Positions 17,567 to 41,245 are shown, counted from the first letter of the whole stretch. The stretch is DNA of 63,067 nucleotides, filler included, from Anaerolineae bacterium (GCA_029262755.1; 8 parts of 8 records of this genome joined end to end with filler, not necessarily neighbours in it); one strand, 5' to 3'. The notes: generated from the sequence alone by a model not told the origin. Made by a program: numbers and translations.

Positions 17567-19168
17567 CTAGGGCGCGCAGAAGTACTTGCCGCTTTCGTCC
17601 CAGCAGAAGCGGTCGCGGACGTTGCGGAAGTCGTCGAGGAGCTGCGCTTCATCGCCGTTTTGCAGGAAGATGTAGTTTCGGCCGTCGCCGCAGACCTTGC
17701 TGTTGAGCGGGTCTTCGTCGACGACTTCTTCGGCTCGCCGGCCGGCATAGAACGAGAACTCGGCATCCGGTTCGAGGATGAAGCCCGCGCTAAATCGGCA
17801 GGCCGTGACGGGCACTTTGCGCATCGGGAATATGGTCCAGCCGGACATGTCCTGCGGTCCGGTGCCGTAGTTCTTGACGTGGATTTCCTGCACCTGCGCG
17901 CGCTGCTGCGGGATCCAGACGATGTCCTTGATGCGCACGTCCGGCACCGGTTCCGGCGTCCACGTCGGCGTGACCGTGGGCAACGGCGTGTCGCTCGGCC
18001 GCGGCGTGTCGCTCGGGCGCGGCGTGTAGGTCGCGCTCGGCAGGGGCGTCGGCGACTTCGTGGGCGAAGGCACCGTCGGCGGGCTGAAAAGGCGGCCCAT
18101 GTCGTGGTCCTTGAGCGCCATCGGCACGAATTTGTGGCGGATGCGCGTCGGGCCGGGCGTCGGCACGAGCGTGGGCGGCGGCGGCGCCGTGAGGCGTGGT
18201 ATCGTCGGCGTCGCGGTCGGGACGGTCGGGATCGGCGTCGGCGGCGACGGGCAGGGGGCGGTCGTTCCGTCGAACAAGAAGTCGATGTGGATGTTATCCA
18301 GCATCACACCGAATCCGTCGGACGAAGTGGCCGGATCGTGACGGTAGGCCAGCGTGAGCATCAGTTCCTTGTAGCCCTCGCCACCCGGCTTGTTGACACC
18401 GTTGAACATCACCTGCACACCGCGTTCCCACTGGCCGCCCGTGTCGGCGGGGAAGCCGGGCGAAACGCCGGCCTCATAGAGCTCGTGGATCGTAATGCTG
18501 CCGTCCGAGCCGCGCGCGTCCAACGCGAAGTCCCCGATGCCCGCGAAGAAGCGGGCGCCGTCGGCCACCGGGACGTCGGCCATGAGGTCCATCGTGACAC
18601 GCATGCCGGTGATGCGGCTGCTGACGGTCGTATCGAACGAGATGAACTGGAGGCTGGTGTTGATCCGACAACCGCCCAGGGCGCGACAGTTATCGCCCAG
18701 GTCGGGCGGGTATTGCTTCGCCGAACACGAGAGCTGGGTGCCGGACGTGCCACCGCCGACCGACCACGCCGACGCGCCACCCGTCGAACCCTCGCAGCTG
18801 GCAAGGCCCCATTGGATTTCATCGTTGCGGCCGGGCGCAGAGGCCAGGGCGTCAAAGGTTCGCCAGTTGGGATACTTGCGGTTCGGGAAATCGGACGCAC
18901 TGCCTTCCCAACTCTCCGCCTGGATGATGCGGGTCACACCGGCTGGGCAGGTGGTACCCTCCTGGCTCGGCGCGAGGACGGCCACCGGTTCCAGACCGGT
19001 TGCGTCGAAGTCGGCCGGCACAATGATCGAGTCCGGCGGAAGAGAGGGACCCGTAACCGTCCGCAGGGTGTCTGGGCGTGAGGCGCCCTGCACCGAGACG
19101 ACCATGGCCGCCACCAAAAAGCCGAGGGCCAGGATGCTGCCTGTTTCAACTAATCGTCTCGTGTCCAT
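17567..19168 (-). CDS. Secreted protein with Cys-containing N-terminal domain, Pro/Thr linkers and C-terminal lamin-tail-like domain
   Basis: Signal-like N-terminus (ILALGFLVAAMVVSVQG); VQEIHVKNYGTGPQDMSGWTI and IFLQNGDEAQLLD resemble lamin tail domains; internal KFVPMALK motif. Confidence 0.75.
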   Translation of the reverse strand: MDTRRLVETGSILALGFLVAAMVVSVQGASRPDTLRTVTGPSLPPDSIIVPADFDATGLEPVAVLAPSQEGTTCPAGVTRIIQAESWEGSASDFPNRKYPNWRTFDALASAPGRNDEIQWGLASCEGSTGGASAWSVGGGTSGTQLSCSAKQYPPDLGDNCRALGGCRINTSLQFISFDTTVSSRITGMRVTMDLMADVPVADGARFFAGIGDFALDARGSDGSITIHELYEAGVSPGFPADTGGQWERGVQVMFNGVNKPGGEGYKELMLTLAYRHDPATSSDGFGVMLDNIHIDFLFDGTTAPCPSPPTPIPTVPTATPTIPRLTAPPPPTLVPTPGPTRIRHKFVPMALKDHDMGRLFSPPTVPSPTKSPTPLPSATYTPRPSDTPRPSDTPLPTVTPTWTPEPVPDVRIKDIVWIPQQRAQVQEIHVKNYGTGPQDMSGWTIFPMRKVPVTACRFSAGFILEPDAEFSFYAGRRAEEVVDEDPLNSKVCGDGRNYIFLQNGDEAQLLDDFRNVRDRFCWDESGKYFCAP

Positions 19169-19403
19169 CGGGCGTTCCCTCACGTCTAGGTTATTCGTAG
19201 TCTTGGGAGAGCATGCATACCACTGATTCGCGACGCTCGATTGTAGCGGCGGCCCCGCACCCGCGCCAGGGTTCGGGGACGCTCGTGCTGTCTCGCGACT
19301 CCGTGGCCCAGGCACGGTTGGTCGGCGGGGTCACGAAGCATGTGCGCCCGCCGTATACCTACCAGACAACCCGCAACCCCTTCAGGGGACGGAAGGCGAC
19401 GCC

Positions 19404-20228
19404 GTGAGCGCATCGCGCGCCGAGCGCGTCTATCTGGAGCTGGTTCGTCAGCATCAAGCCGCCATCCTCGGTTTCATATGGCGGCGTGTTGGTGACCATC
19501 CATTGGCCGAGGACCTCACCCAGGAGACATTCGTGAAGGCGTGGCGTGCCTTGGGGCGCCTCGAGCTGGCGGACGACGCGGCCGATCGCAGACGGGCGTG
19601 GCTCTATCGTATCGCCCGCAACACGGTGACCGATCATATGCGGCGGCGCGCACGCCTCCAATGGCTCTCGCTGGACGCGGTCCGCGAGCGGGGCGGGGGC
19701 GATCCCTCCGGCTCCGTTGCCCAACGCGAACCCGTGCAGCGCGCCCTGGCCGCGCTCGACCCGGACCAGCGCGAGGTCCTACTGCTCTTCGGCCATATCG
19801 GCATGTCGGCGGTGGAGGTGGGTGAGGTGCTGGGGATCAGCGAGGTTGCCGCCCGGAAGCGGCGGCAGCGTGCAAAGGCGGCCTTCGAAGCGCATTGGAA
19901 CGCCATCGAAGCGGCCGCGGACGTCGCGGATGCGGACGACACGGAGGAAGACGCCGAGGAAGGCCGAGCGGGCGTCGACGATCTCGCGCAGGACATGGAT
20001 GTTGCGCACGATATGACCTTCACGTCTCCGTTCGCGGTGTCCACCGACACCGACACGGACACGAGCGCGAGCGTTCGCGGCACGACGCGCGGGGGCGCCG
20101 ATTCCACGGGCGATCACGACCCAAGTGCTCACGGCAACCGCAACGGCACGCCACGCACGTCGCAGCCCGAACCCAGTCCTGCCGACCGGAGCGAGCGCTC
20201 CGACGCCCAGGACAAGAGCCGATCATGA
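19404..20228 (+). CDS. ECF sigma-70 factor with acidic/low-complexity C-terminal extension
   Basis: AEDLTQETFVKAWR, AWLYRIARNTVTDHMRR (region 2); LDPDQREVLLL..EVGEVLGIS (region 4). Confidence 0.92.
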   Translation: MSASRAERVYLELVRQHQAAILGFIWRRVGDHPLAEDLTQETFVKAWRALGRLELADDAADRRRAWLYRIARNTVTDHMRRRARLQWLSLDAVRERGGGDPSGSVAQREPVQRALAALDPDQREVLLLFGHIGMSAVEVGEVLGISEVAARKRRQRAKAAFEAHWNAIEAAADVADADDTEEDAEEGRAGVDDLAQDMDVAHDMTFTSPFAVSTDTDTDTSASVRGTTRGGADSTGDHDPSAHGNRNGTPRTSQPEPSPADRSERSDAQDKSRS

Positions 20229-21832
20229 GCATCGACGACCGCACGCCGCCGGTCCCGCCCGAGGAGGCCGGCAACTCGGTCCACGGGACAGGCGACGCGA
20301 CTCGCGACGCGGCGACCAAGAGGACCGGCACTGGGTCCGACATCGCGACCAGTGACGACGCTGTTGACGCCACGGACCGTCGGATCGCGGCGGCCTTTGC
20401 GGCCGAACGCATGCCGCGGCCGAGCGCGGACCTACAGCGCGCGCTACTCGAGGTGCCGCGCGGGCGCGAGTCCCGCCGCGCGCTCGCGCCGCTGGCCCTC
20501 GGCCTCGCGCTCTTGATGTGCATGTGCGGTTCGGTGGGCATGTGGTGGGACGTCGGCGGGCTTGGCACGCGCCTGGTTCGCGGTCCGGCCGGCACCGCGA
20601 CGGCGGTCGCGCTCGAAGGCGCCGAGAGCCCCAACGGCGACGATCCGGATGCGACGGACGAGGAGCGAGCAGCGGCCGGCGCGGATGCGACGAGCACGGC
20701 GCTGGCCGACCAATCGCCGGGTGACAGTGACGGCGACGATGACGGCGACGATGACGGCGACGACCGCGATGATGCGGGCGATGGCGCCGTCGCGCGCGCC
20801 GACGCTACCCGTACCGCAGCGGCGGCGCGCGGCGGTGCGCGCAACGCCACGCCGACCGGTCCACCGGGCGCGCGTCGCGGTTCCACCGCGATCGCGTTCG
20901 CGGCACCCGCTACGGCTACGCCCGCTGGATTGCGCAGCGCCGGCCCGCCTGCGCGCCGGCCCGGTGAACCGGCTGATCCGCCGGGCGGCGACGATCCACG
21001 CAACCCCCGCTTGCCGGCACTACCAGGCGACCCGAACCCACCCAACCCCCCCGGCGATCCGGACGATCCCAGCCGGCCGGGACGTGGCGGCGGAGCCCCG
21101 ACACCAGCGGAGACCGTGCCGCCAGGGCCCGGCGGAAGCGGCCCCGCGCCGGGCACACCCTTCCCGCCGGGCATCGAGCCTCCGCCGGACCCAACGGCCG
21201 ATCCCACGGGCGATCCGGGCGCGGACCTGCCCGAACCGACGCCGACCGGCAGCGGCCAACGCGTGCCCAGCACGCCGACCGTCGAGCCCACGCCGACACC
21301 CCCTGGACCAGGCGGCGCAATCGCGCCCACCCGCACGCCGACGATCATGGCCCGCTCCACGCCGCGGCTCCCAAGCGCGACACCGCCGATGGGAACGCCT
21401 CCGCCGGAGATGCCGCCGCCCGGCGTGCCTACAACGCCGACGATCATGCCCGTCGTGCCGGCCTCCGCAACGCCGACGGTTGCGGGTGATCTCGGGGCCA
21501 CGGCCACCGCCACCATCAGCGGCACGGCGACGATCACCGTGACCGCCACGATCACACCGACGGGCACGGCGACGGCAACGCCTGTCGCCGGATCGGACGC
21601 GGCGGGGAGCCGCGGCGCCCGCGAATACCAGCCGGAAGGACGCACCCTAGTCGCAGGGCAGCCCCAGCGCGATGCCGCGGTAGATGTCGTACAGGCCGAT
21701 CGCCCGGGGCGCGTAGCGGTAGCGCTCCGCCGCGCCCGCGATCGCGACGAGGAAGCCGCCGTCCACGTTCGCGCCCAGGCCGACCGCAAAGATGGTCGCG
21801 CCCGCGGCCCGCAGGCTTTCCGCGCCCTCTAG
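20225..21832 (+). CDS. Putative anti-sigma factor: single TM plus long Pro/Thr/Asp-rich extracytoplasmic tail
   Basis: ATGA-coupled to the ECF gene; PRPSADLQRALL then a TM (LAPLALGLALLMCMCGSVGMWW). The last ~60 codons overlap the convergent gene. Confidence 0.65.
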   Translation: MSIDDRTPPVPPEEAGNSVHGTGDATRDAATKRTGTGSDIATSDDAVDATDRRIAAAFAAERMPRPSADLQRALLEVPRGRESRRALAPLALGLALLMCMCGSVGMWWDVGGLGTRLVRGPAGTATAVALEGAESPNGDDPDATDEERAAAGADATSTALADQSPGDSDGDDDGDDDGDDRDDAGDGAVARADATRTAAAARGGARNATPTGPPGARRGSTAIAFAAPATATPAGLRSAGPPARRPGEPADPPGGDDPRNPRLPALPGDPNPPNPPGDPDDPSRPGRGGGAPTPAETVPPGPGGSGPAPGTPFPPGIEPPPDPTADPTGDPGADLPEPTPTGSGQRVPSTPTVEPTPTPPGPGGAIAPTRTPTIMARSTPRLPSATPPMGTPPPEMPPPGVPTTPTIMPVVPASATPTVAGDLGATATATISGTATITVTATITPTGTATATPVAGSDAAGSRGAREYQPEGRTLVAGQPQRDAAVDVVQADRPGRVAVALRRARDRDEEAAVHVRAQADRKDGRARGPQAFRAL

Positions 21833-24800
21833 CGCCGCATCCGCGCTGCCCGGCGACGTCCTTCCGTCCGTGAGCAGCACGACGACCGGCACGGCGCCCT
21901 GCCGGCGCCCTGCGTTCAAGAGCTCGGCCGCCGCCGCGAGGCCGCGGTCGATGCGCGTGCCCTGGTCCGAGGCGATCGCGTCGATGGCGCGCTCCAAGGA
22001 TGCCCGGTTGCCGGAAAGCGGGTGGACGGCATGGGCGTGGTCGTCGAAGGCCACGACGCCGGCGCGATCGGCCGGCAGCGCGAGGTAGCCCACGAAGGCG
22101 CGCGCCGCGCGACGGGCCGCATCGAGCTTCGTGGGCGATGCCGAGTCGCCGCCCGCTTCGGCGGGGATCAGCATGCTCGACGAAGCGTCCAGCACCACGA
22201 TCACGTCCACCCGGCGCGCCGGGCAGCGGTTCTGCATCGCGATCGGCAGCCAGATCGCACGGTCGCCCGCGACGCGCACGCGGGGCACGGGGAACGCGAA
22301 GCGGCCCGCGTAGCCGACGCCGTCCACGTAGTCGCCGGCGGCCGTCACGTTGGTCGGACGCAGGCCGGCGCGGGTAGGACGTACCCGATAACGAAGGCGG
22401 ACGCCCGCGGCCGGCACGTCGGTCAACGACCAGCGCAGCGTCCGTCCGTCCCAGGACGCGGGCGGGACCGCCGAGCCCTCTTCGTAGGCCATGTCGGCGG
22501 GCAGCTCGTCCGCGATCTCGATGGTGCGCAGTAGGGTCGCGGTGGCGAGGCGGCGCGCGATCCGAACGTAGGCGCGGCCGAGCTCCGCCTCGTTGGGCAC
22601 CGCGAAGACCTGGTCGATTGAACCCGTCAGCTCGGCGAGGAAGGCGGCATCGACGTCATCGCCCAACCCGATCGCGTAGATCGCGACGCCGGCGGCGCGC
22701 GCCGCCGCCGCGGCGAGGCGGGCGGCGCGCGGGCTCTCGGGCAGTCCGGCGGTCAGCAGCACGATCACCGGCGCCGCCTCGGCGCGCGATCGTGCTCCGG
22801 AAAGCTCCGCCGTCGCACGCTCGAGCGCATCGCCGATGTCCGTACCGCCTGAGGCCGTGATGCCCGCCACGGCACGCACGATCGCCTGCCGGTCCGCGCT
22901 CAGCCCAAGCGCCAGCTCTCCCTCGTCCGAGAAGGGCAGCACGGCAACACGCACCGTGGCCAGATCGAGCTCCGCCGTGAATCCGATCGCCGCGGCGCGC
23001 GACGCGGCCAGCTTCGGGCCTTCCATGGACCCGGAACGGTCGAGCACGAGGGCGATGTCCAGCACCGCGCTCTCCGTGGGACAGTCGCCGTCCAAGGTCA
23101 ACGTCACAGTGATGAGCTCGCCGACGCGCACCGCACCCGGCGCCGCGCGTTTGCCCGGTCGCAGCGCACAGCGGTCGTCGCCGAGCGGCGGCGCGGACCG
23201 GGGCGCGTCCGGCGCGACGTCGGGACCCCACCAGAGGAGTCGTCCGGAGCTGGCGCCGACGCCGCTATCTGCTTCGTCGCCGCCCGGTCCCGCTGGCTCG
23301 TCGGCGGCTTCGCCCGTGCCCCCGCGCTCGCCCTCGCCGTCGACGACCACCACGCGGCCCAGCGTGTCCATGTCCAGGTCGATCGCCGTACCACCGGGTG
23401 CGCCCACGAAGGCGGCGACGAGCGTGCCGGCGTCGATTGGCGTCTCTCCCCCGCCGGAGCCGCCATCGCCGCCGCCGGATCGCCCACCAGTGGCGAGCAC
23501 GCGCACCCAGCCATCGTCGCCAAGCACCGCTACACGGGCGCCGTCCGCGCTCGCCGCGATGCGGTCGATGCGCACGGTCACCGCGATGCGCGCCGTCTCG
23601 CGCCCGTCGCGGTCCAGCCGGCGCAGCGCGCGGGCGCTTCGGTCCGCCACCCACCAGCCCGGCCGCCCGTCGTCCGAACCGTCCGCTGCGACGCCGACTT
23701 CCGCCGCCGCGATATCCACGATAACGCCGCCCAGCCCCGTCATCCGCACGGTGCCGTCGGGCGCGCGTTGCACGAGCCGGCCGTGCCCGGCATCGATCGC
23801 CCCGACCGTGCCGTCCGCCGCCACGGCCCCGGCGACGAGCCAGGTGCCGTCGCTCGGCACGAGTTCGCCGGGCGCGGGCGGCGGCGAGCCGGGTACGATG
23901 CCCGCCTGCCAGCGGCGCTCGACGGCGCCGTCCGCGTCCAACGTGAGCAACGCGTCCGGGGCGACGAGCCACGCGCCGCGTGGGTCGGCAGGATAGTCGG
24001 CGCCGTCGGGTGCGACGGGTTCGGTCGGGTCCGGTTCCGTCGGATCGCCGCGCATCGTCGCGACATCCACCACCTCGGGCAAGGGCCATTGTCCGGCCGG
24101 TCGGCCCAAGCCGTCCCAGCCTTGCATGCGCGGCCAGCGGTCCAGCACCACGACACCTGCGGGGACGGCGTCCGGCGCAAAGGGATCGGGCGGATCCGAG
24201 GGATCGAAGGGCTCCTGCCCGCCGTCGCCACGACCCGGTGCTTGCCCCGTTCCGGGCAACGCCGCTACGCGCCTCGCGCCGGCCAACGCACCGAGGGCGG
24301 CCGGCACGTTGCCCCAGCGCCCGTCCGGCTCGACGCCCGCGCGCGGCTCCGGAGCCGCGTAGTGCAGCACGCCGCTCCACGCCGCGCGAGCGTCCTGCAC
24401 GGTCGCCACAATCCCGCCGTCCGGAACAAGCGCCAGGCCGACGCCGCCGTAGTGATAGGGCCCGGGCACCGGCAGGCGCACGAAGCGCCCTTCGCGCAGG
24501 CCGTACAAACGACGGAAGGTCGTGGTCAGCACAAAGCCGCCGCCGGGCGTTACCACCACGTCACGCGGTGCATCGTAGGCGGGCGTCGCGGATTCGCGAT
24601 CGATCTGCTCGACGACCGCCCCATCCGCGCCGAGCACCCAAACCCGCGCCGCGCCGGGATCGGCCACATACACGCGCACCGCCGCCTCGTCCGCGGCCCC
24701 TCCCGCACCGCCGCCGGAACCATCGCTGGAACCATCATCCGCGCCCTCATCCACGTCGATCCCGGTCGGCGCGCTGAAGCCCACGCGCGCGTTGGGCGAT

Positions 24801-25807
24801 CCGCCCGCCCCGTCCTCAGCCCCGACGTCCGGTCCCCACCGCCCCACGACCGTGCCGGCCGCATCGAACACCGTCACCCGCGCCGCCGCGGCGTCCGCAA
24901 CGTACACGCGCGAGCCGTCCGCCCGTGCCGCGATGCCGCCGGGCGCGCCGCCCATCGGCCAGCTCGCCAAGAACCCACCGCTCTCCACGTCGAAGACCTG
25001 CACCCGCCCGTTCCCCGTATCGCTGACAAACACACGCCCGGCTGCGATCGCCACGTCGGCGGGCGCGTGCAGGCGACCGGGCGCGTCGGAGGGGCCGGCG
25101 GCGGCCGCGGCGGACGGCCCGACGGGCGCCGCGCCGATCGTCCGCACACCGGTGCCCGCGGCATCGAGCACGTGGACGACGTGCTCGGCGCGGTCCGCCA
25201 CCCAGATCTGCCCCGCCTCGTCGACATCCACGCCCGCCGCCGCGCCGAAAACGCCGGCCGGACGCCGCTGCGGCCGCGCGGGCTGCTCGGCGAGCAGGCG
25301 CCACGCGGCGAGCGGCGTCGCGGCGGGGGCGGGCGAAGGGACGGGGGTCGCGGCTTGGGCGCCGGGACGGAGCGCGGAGGCGGCGGCGGCGCGGTGCGCA
25401 GGGGCGGCGGCCGCGGCGACGGGGCGGGGGCCGGCGGGGCGTGCGACGGGTCGAGCGGAGACGGCGACTCCCGAGTGGCTCGCGAACTCCGTGAGTCCCG
25501 CGAATTCGGTACGTCCTGCGTGCCCCGTGTGGCCGGCGGCGCTCGCGAAGGCAAGCGCGAAGGCGACGAGTGGGCGGGTGGCGCGCCGGATCTGCCGGTC
25601 GGCGCGGCTGGTGGGTCGCGCGATGCCACGAGTCGACATGAACGAGGTCCCGACGGAGGTCGCGACGGACGTCGCCTCAGGGATCGCGACCGAGGTCGCG
25701 CTAGAGCGCGAGACGGGGATCGCGCAGTGAGGCGCGACCTTGCTCGCACTGGCGGTTGCGCAGGAGTTCGCGACCGGGCTTGTGGACGTTTCGGGCCGTG
25801 TGACCAT
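21647..25807 (-). CDS. Secreted NHL/beta-propeller protein with two VWA domains
   Basis: NHL repeats (PADVAIAAGRVFVSDTGNGRVQVFD, VYVADPG); VWA1 DIALVLDRSGSM; DUF11-like IEIADELPADMAY; IWLPIAMQ motif; VWA2 DVIVVLDASSSM..LLTDG. Start is 25807 or 25639. Confidence 0.88.
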   Translation of the reverse strand: MVTRPETSTSPVANSCATASASKVAPHCAIPVSRSSATSVAIPEATSVATSVGTSFMSTRGIARPTSRADRQIRRATRPLVAFALAFASAAGHTGHAGRTEFAGLTEFASHSGVAVSARPVARPAGPRPVAAAAAPAHRAAAASALRPGAQAATPVPSPAPAATPLAAWRLLAEQPARPQRRPAGVFGAAAGVDVDEAGQIWVADRAEHVVHVLDAAGTGVRTIGAAPVGPSAAAAAGPSDAPGRLHAPADVAIAAGRVFVSDTGNGRVQVFDVESGGFLASWPMGGAPGGIAARADGSRVYVADAAAARVTVFDAAGTVVGRWGPDVGAEDGAGGSPNARVGFSAPTGIDVDEGADDGSSDGSGGGAGGAADEAAVRVYVADPGAARVWVLGADGAVVEQIDRESATPAYDAPRDVVVTPGGGFVLTTTFRRLYGLREGRFVRLPVPGPYHYGGVGLALVPDGGIVATVQDARAAWSGVLHYAAPEPRAGVEPDGRWGNVPAALGALAGARRVAALPGTGQAPGRGDGGQEPFDPSDPPDPFAPDAVPAGVVVLDRWPRMQGWDGLGRPAGQWPLPEVVDVATMRGDPTEPDPTEPVAPDGADYPADPRGAWLVAPDALLTLDADGAVERRWQAGIVPGSPPPAPGELVPSDGTWLVAGAVAADGTVGAIDAGHGRLVQRAPDGTVRMTGLGGVIVDIAAAEVGVAADGSDDGRPGWWVADRSARALRRLDRDGRETARIAVTVRIDRIAASADGARVAVLGDDGWVRVLATGGRSGGGDGGSGGGETPIDAGTLVAAFVGAPGGTAIDLDMDTLGRVVVVDGEGERGGTGEAADEPAGPGGDEADSGVGASSGRLLWWGPDVAPDAPRSAPPLGDDRCALRPGKRAAPGAVRVGELITVTLTLDGDCPTESAVLDIALVLDRSGSMEGPKLAASRAAAIGFTAELDLATVRVAVLPFSDEGELALGLSADRQAIVRAVAGITASGGTDIGDALERATAELSGARSRAEAAPVIVLLTAGLPESPRAARLAAAAARAAGVAIYAIGLGDDVDAAFLAELTGSIDQVFAVPNEAELGRAYVRIARRLATATLLRTIEIADELPADMAYEEGSAVPPASWDGRTLRWSLTDVPAAGVRLRYRVRPTRAGLRPTNVTAAGDYVDGVGYAGRFAFPVPRVRVAGDRAIWLPIAMQNRCPARRVDVIVVLDASSSMLIPAEAGGDSASPTKLDAARRAARAFVGYLALPADRAGVVAFDDHAHAVHPLSGNRASLERAIDAIASDQGTRIDRGLAAAAELLNAGRRQGAVPVVVLLTDGRTSPGSADAALEGAESLRAAGATIFAVGLGANVDGGFLVAIAGAAERYRYAPRAIGLYDIYRGIALGLPCD

Positions 25808-26180
25808 CGTGGCATCTCTTCGGTTGGCAGCGGATGCGGATCCTACCAGGCGCGTCGTCGGCCGCGGGACTGCCCATCACGGCGCGAGTGTACCGCGCAT
25901 GGCGCATCCCCGAACAACGATTTCGACGATGCGGCACGCGTACACATGGCGAGCAACGTCGGTCCGGGAAGCGATGGGCAGGACGTCTATCGTCAAATTG
26001 TCTCGCGTACTCGCTGACGCGCCGGAGCCCTGCATCGCGGTGTCACCGCCACACCCTCTCGGCCTCCACCACGCTGCGCCGGCTTCGCTGCCCCAGCGTC
26101 AATGCACCAGCATCGCTAGACCGTTCTCGCTACAACGTGGTGATATCCCAGATAGAACACTGCTTCGACCCGCGCCGAGT

Positions 26181-27518: not shown

Positions 27519-27618
27519 NNNNNNNNNNNNNNNNNNNNNNNNNNNNNNNNNNNNNNNNNNNNTTAATTAATTAANNNNNNNNNNNNNNNNNNNNNNNNNN
27601 NNNNNNNNNNNNNNNNNN
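27519..27618. other. Artificial contig spacer
   Basis: N44-TTAATTAATTAA-N44. Confidence 0.99.
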
Positions 27619-31578: not shown

Positions 31579-31603
31579 CGCTGCGACGTCCGAAGGCTTC
31601 CGG

Positions 31604-32646: not shown

Positions 32647-32738
32647 GACCGGCACAAAGAACCGGCACGATCGGCCGACCGAACGGCGATTCCAGTCGAC
32701 TGAATCGGCTCGCCGAAGAGCGCGCTCGATGCGTGAAC

Positions 32739-32792
32739 GCGCGTCTCGATTGGGGCGCGCGTCTCAATCGGGCTGCGCATCTCGATCGGGAG
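32739..32792. repeat. Three imperfect 18-bp tandem repeats
   Basis: GCGCGTCTCGATTGGGGC / GCGCGTCTCAATCGGGCT / GCGCATCTCGATCGGGAG. Confidence 0.8.
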
Positions 32793-32889
32793 AAGCAAAA
32801 TTCGTCTCGTGCCGATGTCTGCCGAAGTTCGAAGGCACGAGACTCAGGCCCACCAACCGACCCGCGGACTAAGGAGCGGCTACCGGAGC

Positions 32890-32989
32890 NNNNNNNNNNN
32901 NNNNNNNNNNNNNNNNNNNNNNNNNNNNNNNNNTTAATTAATTAANNNNNNNNNNNNNNNNNNNNNNNNNNNNNNNNNNNNNNNNNNNN
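32890..32989. other. Artificial contig spacer
   Basis: N44-TTAATTAATTAA-N44. Confidence 0.99.
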
Positions 32990-33143
32990 AGAGTGCGCGC
33001 CACCGAGCCGGGTCATCGGATCCGGCGAGTAGCACGTCAGCCGGCGCCGGAGCGATCGCGACCCGCGGACGGTTCCGCGCTCCGTTCGGCTCGCGTGCCG
33101 GATCGACCGGGCTACCTCGCGCCGCGGTCCTCCGATGAGCTTC

Positions 33144-34637
33144 TCACGGCTGGCGTTCGCCCGACAACCGTACCGCGCCCATGCCAAGCCCGACGATCAG
33201 CCACAGGAGGGCGAAGGCATGGGGATAGGTGAAGAAGTAGTGATCGAAGACGCCGCTGACCATGGCCGCGGTGACGGCGGCCATGCAGCCAAGCACGACG
33301 GCGCGCATGCCGTCGGCGTCCATGGTGCGCCAAGCGTGGGTCCAGCGGGCGAAGGCGGCGCCGAGCACGCCGACGAAGATCGTCAAGCCGATGAGCCCCA
33401 TGGACTCCGCGACGATCAGGTACAGGCTCGAGACGCCGCGGTAGATGTCGACGTCGCGCACACCGCCGAAGCCGACGCCGAAGAGCGGATAGCGTCGGAT
33501 GAGGATCATCGCGTCCTTGTACTCGCCAAGGCGCATGATCGTCGATTGGTCCTCCATGCGCAGGCCGTCGGTGAAGTTGGCGACGTAGGCGGCCGTCCAG
33601 GGCAGGAAGCCGGCCACGATCAAGAAGAAGATCCCCGCGGCGGCCGCGATGGCCAGCAGCCGCCGGTCGCGTGCCAGGCCGACCACGCCGAGGCCCGCAG
33701 CCAGCCCGAGCATCGATCCGCGCGAGACCGTCAGCAGGATGGCCGCCGCGATCAGCGCCGCCGCGGCGATGGCGAGGCCGCGTGGCACGATGGGCCGGCG
33801 GCTGACGATCTGCGGCGCGACGAGCGCAGCCATCACGGCCAGGAGGCCGCCGAAGGAATTGGGGTCGATGGAGGTGCCCGTGGCGCGCTGGAGACCAGCG
33901 GGATCGTCGTTGACGTAGCGGATGACGCCGGAGCCCGTGGGGTAGTCGACCACGCGCAGGGAGGAGAGCACGCGCATCTCCAGGGCGTCGGGCAGCCCGT
34001 AGAGGACGAGACCGACGGCCGCCGCCACCGCGCCGAGCCCAACCAGGGCCAAGAACACCCGGCGCAGGGAGGCGCGGTCCGTGATCAGGTTCGCGACGAT
34101 CAGGAACAGGCCCGCGCCCAAGATCAGCTCGCCGAAGACACGGAGTTGGTTGCGGCTCGGCATTCCCTGGCCGAGCCCGGCGAGAAGGCTGACGACCATC
34201 CAGCCGACGAGCAACAGCAGGCCCGCGGACAGGGGGGGCCAACGCAGCGTGGCCTGCTCGCGCGTGGCGAGGCGCCACGCCCAGATGAGGTACAGGGCGC
34301 CCAAGGTGAGATCGAGAAAGGTGGGGTTGAAGCCGACGCCAAGCGGGATCGCGGCGAAGGGCAGCAAGGTGATCACGGCGACCACGCCGAGGAAGGCCAG
34401 GTCGATGCGGCTGAGGATCAGCAGGCCGGCCGAAAGGCCGACCAGCAGCACGAGGGAGATCGCCGGGTGGATCAGGGCGCCGAGCGCGGCCAGCAGCACG
34501 ACGAGCAAGGCGGCGACCGACAGGATCCAGCGCGCCTGCCGTGCCGGCGGCGCGTCGAGCAAACGGTCGAGCACGATCACCCGCGGGCCCTTGAGCGACG
34601 CAACGTCAATGGTACAATCGAGACGCGCGAGCGCCAC
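33144..34637 (-). CDS. O-antigen ligase/Wzy_C-family polytopic membrane protein
   Basis: Many TM helices; RATGTSIDPNSFG, LTVSRGS, RLGEY..A..LI..YPLFGVGFG. True start may be slightly downstream. Confidence 0.88.
   Translation of the reverse strand: MALARLDCTIDVASLKGPRVIVLDRLLDAPPARQARWILSVAALLVVLLAALGALIHPAISLVLLVGLSAGLLILSRIDLAFLGVVAVITLLPFAAIPLGVGFNPTFLDLTLGALYLIWAWRLATREQATLRWPPLSAGLLLLVGWMVVSLLAGLGQGMPSRNQLRVFGELILGAGLFLIVANLITDRASLRRVFLALVGLGAVAAAVGLVLYGLPDALEMRVLSSLRVVDYPTGSGVIRYVNDDPAGLQRATGTSIDPNSFGGLLAVMAALVAPQIVSRRPIVPRGLAIAAAALIAAAILLTVSRGSMLGLAAGLGVVGLARDRRLLAIAAAAGIFFLIVAGFLPWTAAYVANFTDGLRMEDQSTIMRLGEYKDAMILIRRYPLFGVGFGGVRDVDIYRGVSSLYLIVAESMGLIGLTIFVGVLGAAFARWTHAWRTMDADGMRAVVLGCMAAVTAAMVSGVFDHYFFTYPHAFALLWLIVGLGMGAVRLSGERQP
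34610..34618 (+). promoter_or_regulatory. Candidate extended -10 promoter for the S8 protease gene
   Basis: TG-G-TACAAT about 150 nt upstream of ATG 34767. Confidence 0.4.
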
Positions 34638-34766
34638 GCGCTCGGCTTCTGTTCAACCTCCGTCGGACTGGGCACCATCGCACGTTCCTCCGGGCCGGAT
34701 CAAGGACCCATGGTAGCCCAGGAAGCGCGCACCGTCGTCCCCCCGTACCCCTCCCAAGGAGCCACC

Positions 34767-37700
34767 ATGACCAGCCGTCGCTTCGTCGGAATCGTCCTCT
34801 TTGTGTTGCTTGCTTCGGCGATCGTGGGCGCGTCCGGGGTTGCGGCGCAGTCGCCCGGTTCGGAGCCCGCCGCGGCGCCCGCCGCGGGCGACGTGTCGGG
34901 GGCGCCTTCCGCGCAGCAGTCCTTGCGGCGTATCGACCGGGACGAGGGGCCGGCCGGCGGTATGCCCGGCGAGGTGGAGGGGCGGGCTTCCCGCGCGCCG
35001 GAGGCCGCGCCGCGGTCCAGCGCGACGGCGCTCGACCCATGGGGCCCAACGATCGCTGCACTCGGTGTGGCCGAGCGGCCGCTCGGGACAGAGGCGCGGC
35101 GGAAGCTTGGTCCGGGCCTGCAGCTGGCGTATCTGCGGCTGCAGCGCCAAGCGGAGCTCGCGGGGGGACGGCCGGACGCGTCCCACGACGGATCCGAAGA
35201 AGCCCTTGCCGCTCCGCCCGACCAGCCGCGGCATCTCGATCTGGACGGCTGGTCGTCCGGCGGCCGTTCGCGACCCGCAGCGCCGTTGCCCATGGACCCG
35301 AACGCGCCCCTGCGTGTGCTCGTGACCGGCGGCGACGACGCGGAGTTGCGCGGCGCCGGCATGCGCGTTCGTGCGCGTGTCGGCGCCGTCGCGGCCGGTT
35401 GGATTCCAACGGGACAGCTCGACGAGCTGGCGCGCCTTGGCTCGGTGCGGCGCATCGAGCGCCCGGTCCATGATCTCGCGCTCAACGATGAGGGCCGTAT
35501 CGACGTTCGTGCACCGCAGGCCGTGGCAGTGGGCGGCTCACGCGGCGAGGGCGCGCTGATCGGCGTGATCGACAGCGGCATCGACTTCACGCACCCGGCC
35601 TTCCGAGCCGGCGACGGATCCACACGCATCGCGGGGCTGCTGGACCTGGCCTATCCGGGCGACCTGGATGCCGACGGCGTGCTTGACGGACCCGATGCGG
35701 GCGGCGGTACCGTGTATACCCGTGCGGCGATCGATCGAGCGCTGCGGGAAGGCAACGGCAGCGCGTGGCGGTGGGAAGGCCTGCCGGAATCCGTGGCGGC
35801 ACAGGATTTCGTCGCGGCCGAGGTATGGGTGCGCGATCGTACGCCCGTCGAGACCGTCCACGTGCACCTGGACATCTACCACGAAGACCTGGCAGAGCTC
35901 GCCATCACGATCGAGGATCCTGACGGCAACCTCTATGTGCCGGATGCGCTGGCCGCGGCCACGGAACCGCATGTCTTCGCGACCTACTCCGTGCCGCTCG
36001 AGCAAGGAGCTTCCGCCGCGGGCCGGTGGTACCTCTATGTCGACAACCAAACCTCGGAGCAAGGATGGTTGGACTCGTGGGCCGTGTTCATCAACCGCGA
36101 AGTCCATCAGCAGGACTGGAACGGCCACGGCACGCACGTGGCCGCCACGGCCGCCGGTTCCGGCCGCGACGGGCAAGACGATGGGCCGTTGCTCGGGATC
36201 GCGCCGGGTGCGGAGCTACTCGTCGTGCGCGGCGAGCGCTCCGCCGACGGCTTTGCGACCGACGACCAGATCGCGAGCCTGGCGTGGATCGACCGCCAGG
36301 CCGCCGCGTTGGGCCGGCCCTACGTCACGAACATGAGCCTCGGCGGCCACGGCGGGTCCGCGCACGATGGCAGCACGGCGGTCGAGGTCGCGATCGACGG
36401 ACTCGTCGGTCCCGGCCGGCCAGGCAAAGCGGTGGTGATCGCGGCGGGCAACGAGGGCGCCGACTTTCTCCATGCGGGAGAGGCGCTGGGACCGGGCAGC
36501 CCGAGCATCCCCTTCTGGATCGAGGCGGCGGAGGACGAAGACGGCGTTGGGACGACGTGGGCCGAGCTGTGGATCGAGGCCGACGGTCGCACGACGCCGG
36601 GGCTCGGCTTTCCGCACAGCGATTCGGTCCGCTGTTACACGGGCTCGATCCAGGACGGACAGCTCGTGGATGCTAGAGAGGACTGCGACGCCATCACGCG
36701 CTTCGTGGCAGGCAGCACGATCGATATCGTCCTCTTCGACGAAGACGGCGTGGTCAACGTGCTCTGGATGGCGTGGGAGGAAGGACCGACCGCCGATCTG
36801 CTGAGCGTGGAGTGGTACGACTCCGAGAGTTGGTGGGTGCTGTCCGGCGCGTGGTCCTTGCACCTGCCGGGTCTGCGCGGCCGGTGGGACTCCTGGACCT
36901 CCGCCGGGCCCGCCTGTCGTCCCCTCGCCCGCTGCGACAACGAGTCCTCGGTCTCGTCGCCGGGAACCGCGCGCAACGCGCTGACCGTGGGCGCGCACGT
37001 GACGCGCACGGGCTGGCGGGACGAGATGGGCCGCGAACAGGAGATCGAGGAGACGCGCCACGACGTGGCCAGCTTCTCCGCACGCGGACCGACGCGCGAC
37101 GGGCGCATGAAACCGGACCTGAGCGCTCCCGGCGCTGCCATCCTCTCCGCCCGCTCTTCTGCGATCGTGCCATGCCCCTATGGCGCGATGCTCTACTGCT
37201 TCGAGCCGGACGCCGCCATCGCCAGCTCCGTGGATCCCTTGACGTCCCAAAGCGACGGCACGTCGATGGCCGCGCCCATGGCAGCCGGTGCGGTCGCGCT
37301 CATGCTCTCTCTTGAGCCCACGCTCGATGCCGGACAGATCGGCCGGCGGCTGCGCGAAGGGGCCCGTCATGATGCGTTCACGGGCAGTCCTCCGCGGGCC
37401 AACGACTGGGGCGCGGGCAAGCTCGACCTGACGAACGTAATCCAGCCGGCCAGCGGGCCGACGCCGCCCGCGCCGCCCCCGAGCACGCCGACGCCCGATA
37501 TCGGCCCGCGACGGATCGTCGAAACGGCGGGCCTGACCTTCACGGCCATGGAGGACGTGGTCTTCGACGGCCCCGCCACGGGTCGGGGCACGGGCAGGGA
37601 GCCGATCGTGTTGCGCGAGCGGATCACGGGTCCGCGGCCCGTGATTTGGGTGCAGGGCATGGAGGGCATCGAGAACCGTGCCGGCTACGATCCCGAGTTC

Positions 37701-38774
37701 GACGATGACGACGAGGATTGGGTTCTGCCTTCCGTGTGGCTGCGTATGGACGTGGCCAACGCGAGCGGCGAGGCCTGCATCCACTACGATCACGAGCTCC
37801 AGATCCAGCTCGGCCTGCCGAGCGCGGACGACGACGGGGTGTCCTTCGGCCAGGGCGACGCGTGGTTGCGCCCCTACCGCTCCGATCGCTTCGCCTCCGT
37901 CATCGAGGAAACCGAGGCGCGCGACTTCGTGAACTTCACGGACGGTTTGCTACCGGACGGTGAGCGCGGCCTCTTTGAGCTGGTGGCCAGCATGTCCTGG
38001 TTCGGCGAGGCACCCGGCTACGACGGCATCTTCCTCGTCCAGTCCTGCAATCGGGCCGTGGCCACGCCGGACGCGCCGCCCACGGCGGCACCGACACCAC
38101 GCCCCCCTTCGGTGCGCAAGCACGTGGCCTTCCTCCCGGTTGCCCTGAGCGGGCAGCAGTGTCCGCCCGCGGACGTCTTCACGGACATCGCCCTGATCCT
38201 CGATGCGTCGACGACGATGCTCGAGACCGACCCGAGCGGCCGGACGAAGAACGAGCTATCCGTGCAGGCCGCCCGTGCCTTCGTAGACGGTCTGCGCCTG
38301 CGGGACCGCGGACCGAGCGACCAGGTCTCCCTGGTGGCCTTCAACGCGACGAGCACCGTGCTCTCGCCGCTCACCCCGCGCCGCGCAGAGCTCCAATCCG
38401 CGCTCGATACCTTCACACCGATCCAGATGCAGAGCCGCGTCGAGCTGGGCATCTACACGGGCCTTGCCCAACTGGTCGGCGCCAAGCACCGTCGGGCGAA
38501 CCGGCAGGTGATGGTGGTCATCAGCGACGGCAAGGCGAACCCCGTGCCCGGGGAGGAGGCCGTCCAGGCGTCACGCGGCGCGCAGGAGGCCGGTATCGAT
38601 GTCGTGGTGCTCGGGATCGGGCCCGACATGGACGTCGATGTGCTGCGCCGCATGGCCAGCCGGCCGACGGACTTCCACATCGCGCCGAACGCCGCCGCCC
38701 TGACCGGCATCCTCCAACGTATGGCAGCGCATACGATTCCCTGCGATGACCGCATGTACTGGCCGCACCGCTGA
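34767..38774 (+). CDS. Secreted S8 subtilase with inserted P-domain-like module and C-terminal VWA domain
   Basis: AAGGAG RBS; signal peptide ending VAA-Q; triad IGVIDSGID / GHGTHVAATAAG / GTSMAAP; oxyanion AAGNEG; KPDLSAPG; Pro/Thr linkers; AFLPVALS motif; VWA DIALILDASTTM..ISDG. Confidence 0.92.
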   Translation: MTSRRFVGIVLFVLLASAIVGASGVAAQSPGSEPAAAPAAGDVSGAPSAQQSLRRIDRDEGPAGGMPGEVEGRASRAPEAAPRSSATALDPWGPTIAALGVAERPLGTEARRKLGPGLQLAYLRLQRQAELAGGRPDASHDGSEEALAAPPDQPRHLDLDGWSSGGRSRPAAPLPMDPNAPLRVLVTGGDDAELRGAGMRVRARVGAVAAGWIPTGQLDELARLGSVRRIERPVHDLALNDEGRIDVRAPQAVAVGGSRGEGALIGVIDSGIDFTHPAFRAGDGSTRIAGLLDLAYPGDLDADGVLDGPDAGGGTVYTRAAIDRALREGNGSAWRWEGLPESVAAQDFVAAEVWVRDRTPVETVHVHLDIYHEDLAELAITIEDPDGNLYVPDALAAATEPHVFATYSVPLEQGASAAGRWYLYVDNQTSEQGWLDSWAVFINREVHQQDWNGHGTHVAATAAGSGRDGQDDGPLLGIAPGAELLVVRGERSADGFATDDQIASLAWIDRQAAALGRPYVTNMSLGGHGGSAHDGSTAVEVAIDGLVGPGRPGKAVVIAAGNEGADFLHAGEALGPGSPSIPFWIEAAEDEDGVGTTWAELWIEADGRTTPGLGFPHSDSVRCYTGSIQDGQLVDAREDCDAITRFVAGSTIDIVLFDEDGVVNVLWMAWEEGPTADLLSVEWYDSESWWVLSGAWSLHLPGLRGRWDSWTSAGPACRPLARCDNESSVSSPGTARNALTVGAHVTRTGWRDEMGREQEIEETRHDVASFSARGPTRDGRMKPDLSAPGAAILSARSSAIVPCPYGAMLYCFEPDAAIASSVDPLTSQSDGTSMAAPMAAGAVALMLSLEPTLDAGQIGRRLREGARHDAFTGSPPRANDWGAGKLDLTNVIQPASGPTPPAPPPSTPTPDIGPRRIVETAGLTFTAMEDVVFDGPATGRGTGREPIVLRERITGPRPVIWVQGMEGIENRAGYDPEFDDDDEDWVLPSVWLRMDVANASGEACIHYDHELQIQLGLPSADDDGVSFGQGDAWLRPYRSDRFASVIEETEARDFVNFTDGLLPDGERGLFELVASMSWFGEAPGYDGIFLVQSCNRAVATPDAPPTAAPTPRPPSVRKHVAFLPVALSGQQCPPADVFTDIALILDASTTMLETDPSGRTKNELSVQAARAFVDGLRLRDRGPSDQVSLVAFNATSTVLSPLTPRRAELQSALDTFTPIQMQSRVELGIYTGLAQLVGAKHRRANRQVMVVISDGKANPVPGEEAVQASRGAQEAGIDVVVLGIGPDMDVDVLRRMASRPTDFHIAPNAAALTGILQRMAAHTIPCDDRMYWPHR

Positions 38775-39046
38775 GGTTGCCCTGCCGTTCCGACCGCGCC
38801 AAGGGGCGCGGGCGGGACCGCGGCGGGGATGGCGGGTCGAGGGCGCGCAGAGAGGGCATCCGGCTCGGCCCCGTGCGTGGATCGGATGCGAGCGTAGTTC
38901 CTGTGGCCCCGCAACGTCCTGAGTCCGCAGGATGGGAACCGAAGCCCACGAGACCGGGCGCCGCGCAATGAGTCCACCCCCGTGCGGCACCTCTCGTCCC
39001 CGCGGCCGTCCCCGCGTCGGCTTCCGCGGGCATTCGTGGCGTGCTC

Positions 39047-39052
39047 TATAAT
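39047..39052 (+). promoter_or_regulatory. Candidate -10 box for the glutaminyl cyclase pair
   Basis: Perfect TATAAT in GC-rich DNA, 25 nt before ATG 39078, which has a GGAGG RBS. Confidence 0.5.
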
Positions 39053-39077
39053 CGCTCTCCCAACGCGGGAGGAAGGC

Positions 39078-40118
39078 ATGGCCGACGAAGAGGCGGGGCG
39101 TACTCTGGACGATGGCTCGGGGCGCGCGGCGTCGCAGAGCGAAGAGACAGATGCCGCGGCCTCGTCGCAGCGTGCCAAACCATGGCGCGCGACGTTGCCC
39201 ATCGGCCTGCTCGTCTTTGCGGTGGCCGCCGCGCTCGTGTGGTTCCTCGTCGATTCGATCGGCAGCGAGCGTGATCCGGCCGGAGACGGCGCCGAACAGG
39301 CGGACGGCAGCGGGGTCGCCGACGACGCGCCCGACGTGGTCGTGACGCCCTCCGGCCCGGACGAGGCGGGGCGTGCGGCGCGCCTTGTGCCCGAGATCAT
39401 CGCCGAGCACCCGCATGATGCGACCGCCTTTACGCAAGGCCTGCTGCTGCACGATGGTCTGCTCTACGAGAGCACGGGCCTACGCGGGCGCTCGAGCTTG
39501 CGCGAGGTGGAGCTCACCACGGGCAACATTCGCCGCGCCGAGCGCTTGGATGACAGCTTCTTCGGCGAGGGTCTTGCGCTGGCCGGGGAATCCTTCTGGC
39601 AGCTGACGTGGCAGAGCGGCGTTGCCATCCGCTACGACCGCGCGAGCTTCGGGCGCATCGAGATCGTGCGCTACGAGGGTGAAGGCTGGGGCCTTTGCCA
39701 TGACGGAGAGCGCCTGATCATGAGCGACGGCAGCGGCAGCCTCTTCTTCCGCGACCCCGACACCTTCGCCCTCGAAGGCGAGATCGCCGTCACGGTGAAC
39801 GGCGAGCCGACCGAGCGCTTGAACGAGCTGGAGTGCGTCGGCAGCCTGGTTTACGCCAACGTCTGGCAGACGAACAACATCCTCGAGATCGATCCCGGCA
39901 CCGGCGTCGCCGCGGCCGTCATCGATGCAAGCGCGCTCACGGCCCGTGCCGTGGAGCTGGCGACGGCGGACATGGACGTGCTCAACGGCATCGCCTGGGA
40001 CCCGGCCGACGGCGACTTCTACGTCACGGGCAAGCTCTGGCCGGTGATCTTCGAGGTCGACTTCCGCCCCGCGGGCCCAGAATCCAATCCCGACGCCGGC
40101 GGCGCGGCGGACGGATGA
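39078..40118 (+). CDS. Glutaminyl-peptide cyclotransferase (type I, beta-propeller), N-terminal TM anchor
   Basis: PHD..AFTQGL, LYESTG, FGEGL, QLTW, EGWGL, SDGS, LNELE, YANVW, VLNGIAW, VTGKLWP. Confidence 0.95.
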   Translation: MADEEAGRTLDDGSGRAASQSEETDAAASSQRAKPWRATLPIGLLVFAVAAALVWFLVDSIGSERDPAGDGAEQADGSGVADDAPDVVVTPSGPDEAGRAARLVPEIIAEHPHDATAFTQGLLLHDGLLYESTGLRGRSSLREVELTTGNIRRAERLDDSFFGEGLALAGESFWQLTWQSGVAIRYDRASFGRIEIVRYEGEGWGLCHDGERLIMSDGSGSLFFRDPDTFALEGEIAVTVNGEPTERLNELECVGSLVYANVWQTNNILEIDPGTGVAAAVIDASALTARAVELATADMDVLNGIAWDPADGDFYVTGKLWPVIFEVDFRPAGPESNPDAGGAADG

Positions 40119-41245
40119 GCCGGGCCGCGGGAATCGCGCTGGCCGTTGCCGTCGCGTCCGCGTGGTCGGCGGCCGGCGCTGCGGGTCACGTGGATCCCGC
40201 GCACGTTGCGCGTGCACACGCCGGCTCCGTGGGCCTCGCGAACGCCGCGCGCGTTGCGGGCGCACCCGCCGAGGTCGCGACGGTCGACGTCCGCATCCTG
40301 GGCCACGACTCTCGTAGCGCCGGCATCCGCAACGCCGGCATCCGCGACGTCGGCTTCCTCGATGCCGCGCAAGAGCCCACGCAACACACGATCGAGATCG
40401 TGTCGATCCGTCCGCACGACGGCGACGCCTTCACCCAAGGTCTGCTGCTCCACGAGGGTCGCCTGTTCGAAAGCACCGGCCGGCGTGGCACGTCGACGGT
40501 GCGCGAGGTTGATCCCGTCTCGGGCGCCGTGCTGCGCCAACAGGCGCTGCCGGCTTCGGACTTCGGCGAAGGGCTCGCGCGCGTCGACGACCGGCTGATC
40601 CAGATCACGTGGCAGGCGGGCATCGCCCATGTCTGGGATCTCGAGAGCTTCGCACCGCGCACCACATTCGCCTACGAGGGTGAGGGTTGGGGCCTGTGCT
40701 ACGACGGGGCGCGGCTGGCGATGACGGACGGCGGCAGCAGGCTGATCTTTCGCGATCCCGCCACCTTCGCCGAGCTCGGTCGCGTCACGATCTGGCTGCG
40801 CGGAGCCGCGCTGCGCCGGGTCAACGAGCTGGAGTGCGTCGGCGATCGGGTCTGGGGCAACGTGTGGTTCGAGGACTTCATCGTCGCCATCGATCCCGTG
40901 ACCGGGAACGTGACCGACATCGTCGACGCATCGGCGCTCATGGAACGCATCCGCACCGAGTACCCCACCCACCCGAGCAACGTGCTCAACGGCATCGCCT
41001 TCGATCCGGACACCGGCCACTGGCTGCTGACGGGCAAGTTGTGGCCCGAGCTATACGAGGTCCGCTTTGTGCCCGTCGGTGCCGCGCCTTCGGCGACGCC
41101 CGTAGGGCCGGCGACGCCCTCCGCGACGCCGGTGCTGGATGCGACACCGACGGCGACGGCGACGCCGCTATCGACCGCGACGGCGACGCCGACCGCCACG
41201 GAGCCGGCATCGTTGTGGATGCCCTTCGCGTGGAAAGGCCGCTGA
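40115..41245 (+). CDS. Second glutaminyl-peptide cyclotransferase, with signal peptide, Pro/Thr tail and C-terminal LWMPFAWKGR
   Basis: Same motif series (AFTQGL, FESTG, FGEGL, EGWGL, VNELE, VLNGIAF, TGKLWP); ATGA-coupled to the first copy. Confidence 0.95.
   Translation: MSRAAGIALAVAVASAWSAAGAAGHVDPAHVARAHAGSVGLANAARVAGAPAEVATVDVRILGHDSRSAGIRNAGIRDVGFLDAAQEPTQHTIEIVSIRPHDGDAFTQGLLLHEGRLFESTGRRGTSTVREVDPVSGAVLRQQALPASDFGEGLARVDDRLIQITWQAGIAHVWDLESFAPRTTFAYEGEGWGLCYDGARLAMTDGGSRLIFRDPATFAELGRVTIWLRGAALRRVNELECVGDRVWGNVWFEDFIVAIDPVTGNVTDIVDASALMERIRTEYPTHPSNVLNGIAFDPDTGHWLLTGKLWPELYEVRFVPVGAAPSATPVGPATPSATPVLDATPTATATPLSTATATPTATEPASLWMPFAWKGR

Follow-up and report, generated by a model that had tools for sequence, protein, structure and literature searches.

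Why do four otherwise unrelated exported proteins of one bacterium carry nearly the same eight-residue peptide, and what could this peptide be for? The question is raised by a 63,067-nucleotide stretch of DNA (filler included; hereafter, the window) from Anaerolineae bacterium (GCA_029262755.1), which is a chain of eight contigs of a metagenome-assembled genome (MAG) with N spacers between them. A first-pass annotation had singled out the peptides KFVPMALK (18110-18133), IWLPIAMQ (22232-22255), AFLPVALS (38127-38150) and LWMPFAWK followed by GR and a stop codon (41213-41245), and had interpreted them as a portable tag that docks cargo onto the cell envelope or marks it for processing. Translation places all four peptides at these positions, the last two on the plus strand and the first two on the minus strand, which the annotation had left unmentioned, and their genes lie, as it had described, on two contigs, C352 (17488-27518) and C354 (32990-44658). 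Each of the peptides is an instance of the YLP box, a motif of approximately eight residues that is expanded and degenerate in this genome and its family, where approximately 290 exported proteins (∼8% of the gene calls) each carry one box.

The four host proteins differ in their cargo, as had been noted. Pfam detected LTD in the first (a lamin-tail-domain protein; E 2.6e-5, below the Pfam cut-off), NHL and VWA in the second, S8, P_proprotein and VWA in the third, and glutaminyl cyclase in the fourth, and a hydrophobic N-terminal leader was recognized by eye in each of them, in line with the signal peptides originally assigned. KFVPMALK precedes the lamin-tail domain and has a Pro/Thr linker on either side. 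In the NHL-VWA protein, IWLPIAMQ separates a beta-sandwich from the second VWA domain. AFLPVALS follows a Pro/Thr linker in the S8 protease and lies three residues ahead of the Cys with which the C-terminal VWA module begins. LWMPFAWK is at the extreme C-terminus of the second of two glutaminyl cyclases, again after a Pro/Thr linker. They also differ in quality. The cyclase box (16.5-17.5 bits with the profile described below) matches the core pattern aliphatic-aromatic-Leu-Pro-x3-basic, and the NHL-VWA box (18.7-19.3 bits) matches it except for the basic residue, where it has Q, with an R two residues later. The S8 box (12.2 bits) is without the basic residue, and the degenerate lamin-tail box (<8 bits) has V in place of L and K in place of the aliphatic residue. 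Fuller boxes are found at the same positions in orthologues of the window proteins.

We extended the analysis to the whole genome (5.06 Mb, 428 contigs, 66.8% GC), in which 3455 proteins were called by an in-house codon-score script, the stop positions being independent of the script. The consensus initially proposed, x-[FW]-[LVM]-P-[IVMF]-A-[LMW], has 13 matches in these proteins versus 2.5 expected from composition, and six of the 13 are at the extreme C-terminus, but it is too narrow: Ala at position +2 and [LMW] at position +3 are not conserved, whereas an aliphatic residue before the aromatic one and a basic residue four positions after the Pro are. A looser pattern revealed dozens of proteins with the same kind of ending. 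A profile iterated from such look-alike C-termini converged at 325 matches and yielded the consensus (I/V/L/A)(Y/W/F/H)(L/M/I)-P-(L/W/M/F/Y/I/R)-x-x-(R/K/N). When the proteome was rescanned with the final profile, 335 matches were obtained at 12 bits (reversed proteome, 16; shuffled proteome, 32); the corresponding numbers are 196, 3 and 4 at 16 bits and 63, 0 and 0 at 20 bits. Because the profile was trained on the same proteome, two profile-independent checks were made. A plain regular expression matched 209 times versus 26 times in the reversed proteome, and 106 of the 209 matches lie no more than 14 residues from the C-terminus (3.7% expected, p 4e-92; 2 of 26 in the reversed control). A back-translated DNA pattern for IYLPxxxR matched this genome 17 times, versus once for the pattern read backward. 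Approximately 290 boxes thus stand above the false-positive expectation. Two matches in the same protein were found in only 5 of 320 box proteins, and all of these are weak.

A comparison of the C-terminal tails with NCBIfam identified NF050076.1 (sort_motif_YLP, 'YLP-box putative sorting motif-containing protein'), a hidden Markov model (HMM) of 11 positions with a 15-bit cut-off. This entry and the local box represent the same motif in the same register, with model positions 4-11 aligning to I-Y-L-P-x-x-x-R (e.g. IYLPMVVR), and the local box recurs in many exported proteins of this genome. The local box is more degenerate, with W, F or H for Y, W, F or Y after the Pro, and N, Q or S for the basic residue. 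Over the genome, NF050076 gave 14 matches at E<=10, two of which reach the cut-off. A single match means little, since the model also has matches in 11 of 14 unrelated control genomes (E up to 10, two over the cut-off). The window motif is therefore a degenerate and massively expanded variant of a putative sorting motif that is already catalogued, an entry overlooked by the earlier statement that no assigned function was known. The NCBIfam accessions adjoining NF050076 are unrelated. Our literature search found no paper on the YLP-box motif and nothing relevant on sorting signals of Chloroflexota, and the accessible part of a 2023 preprint on myxosortase (10.1101/2023.06.07.544157) contains neither 'YLP' nor 'Chloroflex'.

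The positions of the boxes fall into three recurrent contexts. More than half of the 325 boxes (193) lie less than 15 residues from the stop, and for 111 of these the preceding 40 residues include a Pro/Thr-rich stretch. Another 46 are followed by the start of a VWA domain within the next 50 residues, and 23 come after a hydrophobic leader, no more than 90 residues from the start, with a Pro/Thr stretch downstream in 13 cases. A further 29 occupy other internal sites flanked by Pro/Thr, as in the lamin-tail protein. The remaining 34 have no such context, and as their number is near the control expectation, they approximately correspond to false positives. Among the 106 C-terminal boxes found by the regular expression, 39 end exactly at the basic residue; the tails that follow C-terminal boxes comprise 0-13 residues and are enriched 2.1-fold in Arg, and an Arg also precedes approximately 30% of the boxes. 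In 16 of the 23 post-leader proteins, AQ is present just upstream of the box, which suggests that the mature proteins begin with Gln and that this residue could be converted to pyroglutamate by the exported cyclases. A 'Q-rule' of Gln after the leader cleavage site was not supported by a crude count over the genome, in which Gln was not enriched after AxA-like sites.

The cargo is diverse and largely of an extracytoplasmic type. With the box removed, the C-terminal set forms 144 similarity clusters. Of 60 randomly chosen cluster representatives, 28 contain Pfam domains (E<=1e-5) and 32 contain none, and 26 of the 28 are typical surface or secreted types. The domains include CBM96, CotH, LTD, LVIVD, beta-lactamase, C25, M14, M60 and S9 peptidases, cohesin and DUF11 as well as fn3, Kelch, PPC, Laminin_G_3, FG-GAP, phytase-like, PhoD and cytochrome c7. 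A leader heuristic was positive for 169 of the 285 box proteins with complete 5' ends, compared with 938 of 2962 other proteins (odds ratio 3.1, p 9e-20), and Pro/Thr linkers are present in 182 of 320 box proteins versus 224 of 3135 others. The original proposals of a portable tag on unrelated exported proteins, of its association with linkers and of its use at both internal and terminal positions are all borne out by these counts.

Orthologues provide a further line of evidence. Of 119 non-self homologues of the cyclase, 17 have a C-terminal box of at least 11 bits, and 11 of these 17 are among the 12 best homologues. They show 41-73% identity and have the box with or without a Pro/Thr linker. 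In the S8/VWA module, the box before the Cys is kept in all eight non-self database relatives (13.8-21 bits) and also in P0128. In nine relatives of the lamin-tail protein, encoded in eight other genomes of the family, the equivalent site reads x-(F/Q/R/G)-L-P-x-x-x-(R/K/Y), and the linkers around it vary among them in length and sequence. This conserved position indicates that even the weakest of the four instances is a real, degenerate box. In the cyclase, S8 and lamin-tail orthologues taken together, the box is retained at 35-84% identity while the linkers change. As judged from these alignments, the box is under selection at the protein level.

The pre-VWA context was examined in 20 genes, many of which encode double-VWA proteins of approximately 600 residues and others of which have LVIVD or NHL cargo. 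Alignment of 24 modules revealed three elements that are invariant or almost so: the Leu-Pro of the box, a Cys located seven residues beyond the Pro, and another Cys close to the C-terminus. In many modules, a second short terminal motif occurs at the last Cys, with the form C-x3-4-(Y/F)-W-(P/G)-x1-3-R or GRHDWxxxWP (loci L001-L020 and P0131-P0137); its window copy (38739-38771, plus strand), with MYWPHR, has low AlphaFold2 confidence. Together with the Cys that follows the box, this motif may bridge the VWA domain by a disulfide clamp.

Two alignment-based AlphaFold2 models were obtained, one for the NHL-VWA module and one for the S8 module. The former has a mean predicted local distance difference test score (pLDDT) of 90.0, with residues 98-105 (the box from its Leu-Pro onward) below 50; here the box, which forms at most a 3-residue bridge, separates a beta-sandwich and a VWA fold that were both predicted with confidence. 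The latter has a mean pLDDT of 88.0, with values of 55-66 for residues 1-30, which include the box at 15-22; the box region and the C-terminal tail are coil, and no strand is predicted. In both models, the box has the lowest confidence and no regular structure; it thus appears to be exposed rather than folded into a domain, and neither supports the alternative that it is merely a core strand of its neighbour. That the peptides reflect chance, compositional bias or a strand of a neighbouring domain is hardly credible. The motif is short, the lamin-tail instance scores poorly and the curated HMM does match unrelated genomes, but this explanation is refuted by the reversed and shuffled controls, the positional bias, the conservation in the three sets of orthologues and the low-confidence coil of the models.

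The predicted exposure of the box in interdomain linkers would also suit a maturation or shedding site, at which an extracellular protease would detach the VWA or lamin-tail modules from the cargo or trim the ends of the protein. The tagging of many secreted peptidases themselves, S8 and C25 enzymes among them, and the frequent Arg before the box are compatible with such a role. However, at the 193 boxes located at the very end of the protein, a cut would remove only 0-13 residues, which leaves the conservation of the motif there unexplained, and we consider a shedding site improbable.

The first-pass annotation had described similar motifs as common in exported proteins of Chloroflexota, and this generalization did not hold. 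The strict DNA pattern occurs in 2-30 copies in all 12 genomes of the same family (control, 0-1) and in 1-8 copies in eight genomes of other families in the order (control, 0-3). Among 40 pattern sites in two other genera, 5 and 3 are C-terminal, 8 and 11 pre-VWA, and approximately 1 and 2 post-leader, so that all three contexts recur; one of the 40 is a false match with an internal stop. In contrast, the counts in 200 genomes sampled evenly across the phylum are mostly 0-3, near the control, and only a few reach 6-11 (G058 and G165, two unpublished genomes, are counted here, but none of the claims depends on them). The box is present in none of 79 complete cyclase orthologues from species-representative genomes (39 labelled Chloroflexota and 40 other), and none of the 1423 long frames flanking those orthologues ends in a box. 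Of the named cyclase homologues, the closest comes from an Anaerolineae MAG. The cyclase orthologues and the 200-genome counts indicate that the expansion of the box is lineage-specific and not a general trait of Chloroflexota. The earlier interpretation therefore stands with respect to a portable tag, its linkers and its two kinds of position, but not with respect to the consensus, the generality in Chloroflexota or the lack of any assigned function.

This restricted distribution bears on the possibility that the box is an autonomous interfacial anchor that partitions, without a receptor, into the outer face of the cytoplasmic membrane or into a hydrophobic wall layer. Its composition (four or five hydrophobic or aromatic residues, then a basic one, and basic tails) fits this idea, as do its independence of position, its location at the end of flexible stalks and the fact that no partner was found among the candidates examined. 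Membranes are universal, however, whereas the motif is confined to particular lineages. Furthermore, the invariant Pro and the fixed spacing between the Pro and the basic residue point to specific recognition, and eight residues confer little membrane affinity. We regard a receptor-free anchor as quite unlikely.

The preference for the C-terminus raises another alternative, namely a cleaved sorting signal. In this scheme, a dedicated protease or transpeptidase would cut in or after the box and link the cargo covalently to the wall or to a lipid, by analogy with LPXTG/sortase, PEP-CTERM/exosortase and the C-terminal domain of the type IX secretion system with PorU. Multiple copies, 193 of 325 at the C-terminus, leaders, diverse cargo, a Pro signature and an Arg-enriched end are features expected of such signals (10.1101/2023.06.07.544157); the NCBIfam name is that of a putative sorting motif; and the genome encodes four C25 (gingipain/PorU-family) peptidases and two or three sortases. 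Several observations are nevertheless difficult to reconcile with cleavage. There is no transmembrane segment between the motif and the basic residue, which is a defining part of tripartite signals (10.1101/2023.06.07.544157), and the 39 regular-expression boxes that stop at the basic residue offer no leaving group. Acyl transfer at an N-terminal box would anchor a stub of 15 residues, and at a pre-VWA box it would sever the VWA domain. As for the enzymes, three of the four C25 peptidases are themselves box-bearing at the C-terminus, the sortases have five LPXTG substrates of their own, and both families occur alike in box-rich and box-poor relatives. Neither the C25 peptidase (present in 20 of 21 relatives) nor the sortase (21 of 21) discriminates between the two groups, and both were rejected as partners on this ground. 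We therefore consider a cleaved signal unlikely.

The five LPXTG-type proteins, which are likely to be sortase substrates, are encoded outside the window. Four are products of tandem SdrD_B-like genes on contig C376 (738-6584, locus L161), each with LP(S/A)TG, a hydrophobic helix and an Arg cluster, and the fifth, on contig C393, has LPKTG and DUF4397. They were examined as possible scaffolds, but the SdrD_B-like domains in four and DUF4397 in one include nothing suggesting peptide binding. An orphan cohesin was likewise rejected as the receptor: the genome has four cohesin and five dockerin modules and thus no surplus. In one relative (G008:C9:160438-161079, locus L200), a C-terminal-box gene lies tail-to-tail with a sortase gene at approximately 190 bases, a single case.

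The analyses demonstrate that the box is a selected, exposed, one-per-protein and position-independent tag of extracytoplasmic-type proteins. With regard to its action, the reading we favour, although we hold it at about even confidence, is that the box acts non-covalently to dock or retain its proteins at the envelope and is not a sortase-type cleaved signal. The box sits at the end of a flexible stalk, be it at the C-terminus, behind the leader or where the cargo is joined to a terminal VWA or lamin-tail module. Through its alternating hydrophobic residues, it would insert as an additional strand into a groove of an envelope component. In an extended chain, the I, the L, the residue after the Pro and the residue two further on would form a single hydrophobic face, as in strand-addition ligands. 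Docking of this kind would hold diverse enzymes and adhesins at the cell surface and would represent a minimal analogue of dockerin-type or wall-binding tags. Docking is favoured because the order of parts is leader, box, linker and cargo in post-leader proteins and cargo, linker and box in C-terminal ones; the two arrangements are mirror images, and acyl-transfer cleavage would make no sense for the former. It is also favoured by the C-terminal boxes that lack a leaving group, by the existence of separate proteins with LPXTG, a transmembrane segment and Arg for the two or three sortases, and by two adjacent cyclase paralogues in the window (38982-40118 and 40115-41245, both on the plus strand), the first of which has an N-terminal transmembrane helix and no box, whereas the second combines a leader with a Pro/Thr linker and a box at the C-terminus.

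Several points weigh against this reading. No receptor or protease partner was found among the candidates examined (C25 peptidases, sortases, cohesins and LPXTG proteins). The C-terminal preference and the Arg-enriched tails resemble classical cleaved sorting signals, and the NCBIfam curators name the motif accordingly. The four window boxes are absent from the 14 genome matches of NF050076 and were not detected by hmmscan of short segments, the filters of which also missed canonical IYLPLILR controls. The leader heuristic fails for 41% of the box proteins, and two of the 28 annotated cargos (LysE and PPDK_N) look cytoplasmic or membrane-bound. In addition, low AlphaFold2 confidence is no proof of disorder, and the gene calls, leader calls and context classes were all made by in-house scripts, of which the gene and leader calls are crude; one predicted protein has 11555 residues, and several box proteins exceed 2000 residues.

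A more specific version of docking is proposed here only tentatively. The box may be an 8-residue 'mini-dockerin' on Pro/Thr stalks, the peptide half of a hitherto undescribed, lineage-specific display system by which ∼8% of the proteome, comprising enzymes, adhesins and VWA modules, would be tethered non-covalently to a dedicated envelope receptor. Its hosts would be a filamentous Chloroflexota-like group, and the box would work from either terminus or inside a linker. The same device would also exist in a composite version, the box-VWA-(Y/F)W(P/G)xR module with its Cys clamp.

The host genes in the window can be delimited as follows. The lamin-tail-domain protein is encoded at 17567-19168 on the minus strand if translation starts at MDTRRL, within an open frame of 17567-19315. 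The gene for the protein with the order NHL, VWA, beta-sandwich, box and VWA occupies 21647-25639 on the same strand; its start is the choice of the gene caller, and the open frame extends over 21647-25807. The probable true extent of the S8 protease gene is 34767-38774 (plus strand), corresponding to a database protein of 1335 residues that starts with MTSRRF (P0130) and is 99% identical to the S8 module of the window; the VWA domain after its box spans 38184-38711 on the plus strand (PF00092, E 1.1e-15). Upstream of this gene, the plus-strand translation of 33135-34766 is of low complexity and rich in Asp, Glu, Arg, Gly and His. The 1879-residue open frame that begins at 33135 probably includes this region as an upstream, non-coding extension typical of high-GC DNA. 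The second glutaminyl cyclase gene (40115-41245), which encodes the leader, cyclase domain, linker and box, corresponds to a 376-residue database protein (P0008) with 100% identity. Its Pro/Thr/Ala-rich linker between the cyclase domain and the box lies at 41078-41212 (plus strand), the Pfam domain ending at residue 412 of a 470-residue frame. The window contains one further profile match, LLMPWSRR (50661-50684, plus strand, 13.9 bits), near the start of a 444-residue frame; it is followed by a hydrophobic segment and is without linker context, and it is probably a chance match.

How hundreds of exported enzymes and adhesins are retained at the surface of single-membrane Chloroflexota is poorly understood, and a tag on approximately one protein in twelve is probably central to the organization of the envelope in this lineage. 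The motif is already catalogued as NF050076, but annotation pipelines that apply the curated cut-off miss nearly all boxes of the lineage. With its approximately 290 boxes, three recurrent contexts, and both box-rich and box-poor relatives, this genome family offers a rich set for finding the partner. If the docking reading is true, a position-independent display tag of eight residues would also be useful as a tool.

Among known systems, the YLP box can be compared with the group of tripartite C-terminal sorting signals, which comprises LPXTG/sortase, PEP-CTERM/exosortase, PGF-CTERM/archaeosortase, GlyGly-CTERM/rhombosortase and MYXO-CTERM/myxosortase. Small C-terminal sorting signals are recognized by their multiplicity, C-terminal location, leaders, diverse cargo and Pro signature (10.1101/2023.06.07.544157), and tripartite signals have a transmembrane-length hydrophobic segment after the signature and two to five basic residues at the end (10.1101/2023.06.07.544157; see also PMC11980579). 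The YLP box shares with them the many copies, the leaders, the unrelated cargo and the short Pro signature. A location near the C-terminus is shared by the 193 boxes mentioned above and, among the four in the window, by that of the cyclase only; the other 132 boxes lie elsewhere. Unlike tripartite signals, however, the box has no transmembrane helix, with only three residues between the Pro and the basic residue, and it also occurs in post-leader and internal positions. Its end has one conserved R, K or N and an Arg-enriched tail, or no tail in 39 of 106 cases, compared with the two to five basic residues described for the tripartite type. No cognate sorting enzyme was found to co-occur with the box in the two families profiled, sortase and C25 peptidase.

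The proposed mode of binding resembles that of the donor-strand peptides of chaperone-usher and type V pili, which are terminal, have alternating hydrophobic residues and could complete the sheet of a partner. This likeness is an analogy only, as neither a pilin fold nor an acceptor groove was identified here. In its overall arrangement, the YLP box can be compared functionally with the cohesin-dockerin, SLH, WxL and GW systems, in which, by analogy, one tag per protein is likewise displayed on a Pro/Thr stalk by many enzymes, mostly at the C-terminus but also at the N-terminus or internally. The dockerin, SLH, WxL and GW modules are folded domains of 40-190 residues, whereas the YLP box is a linear motif of eight.

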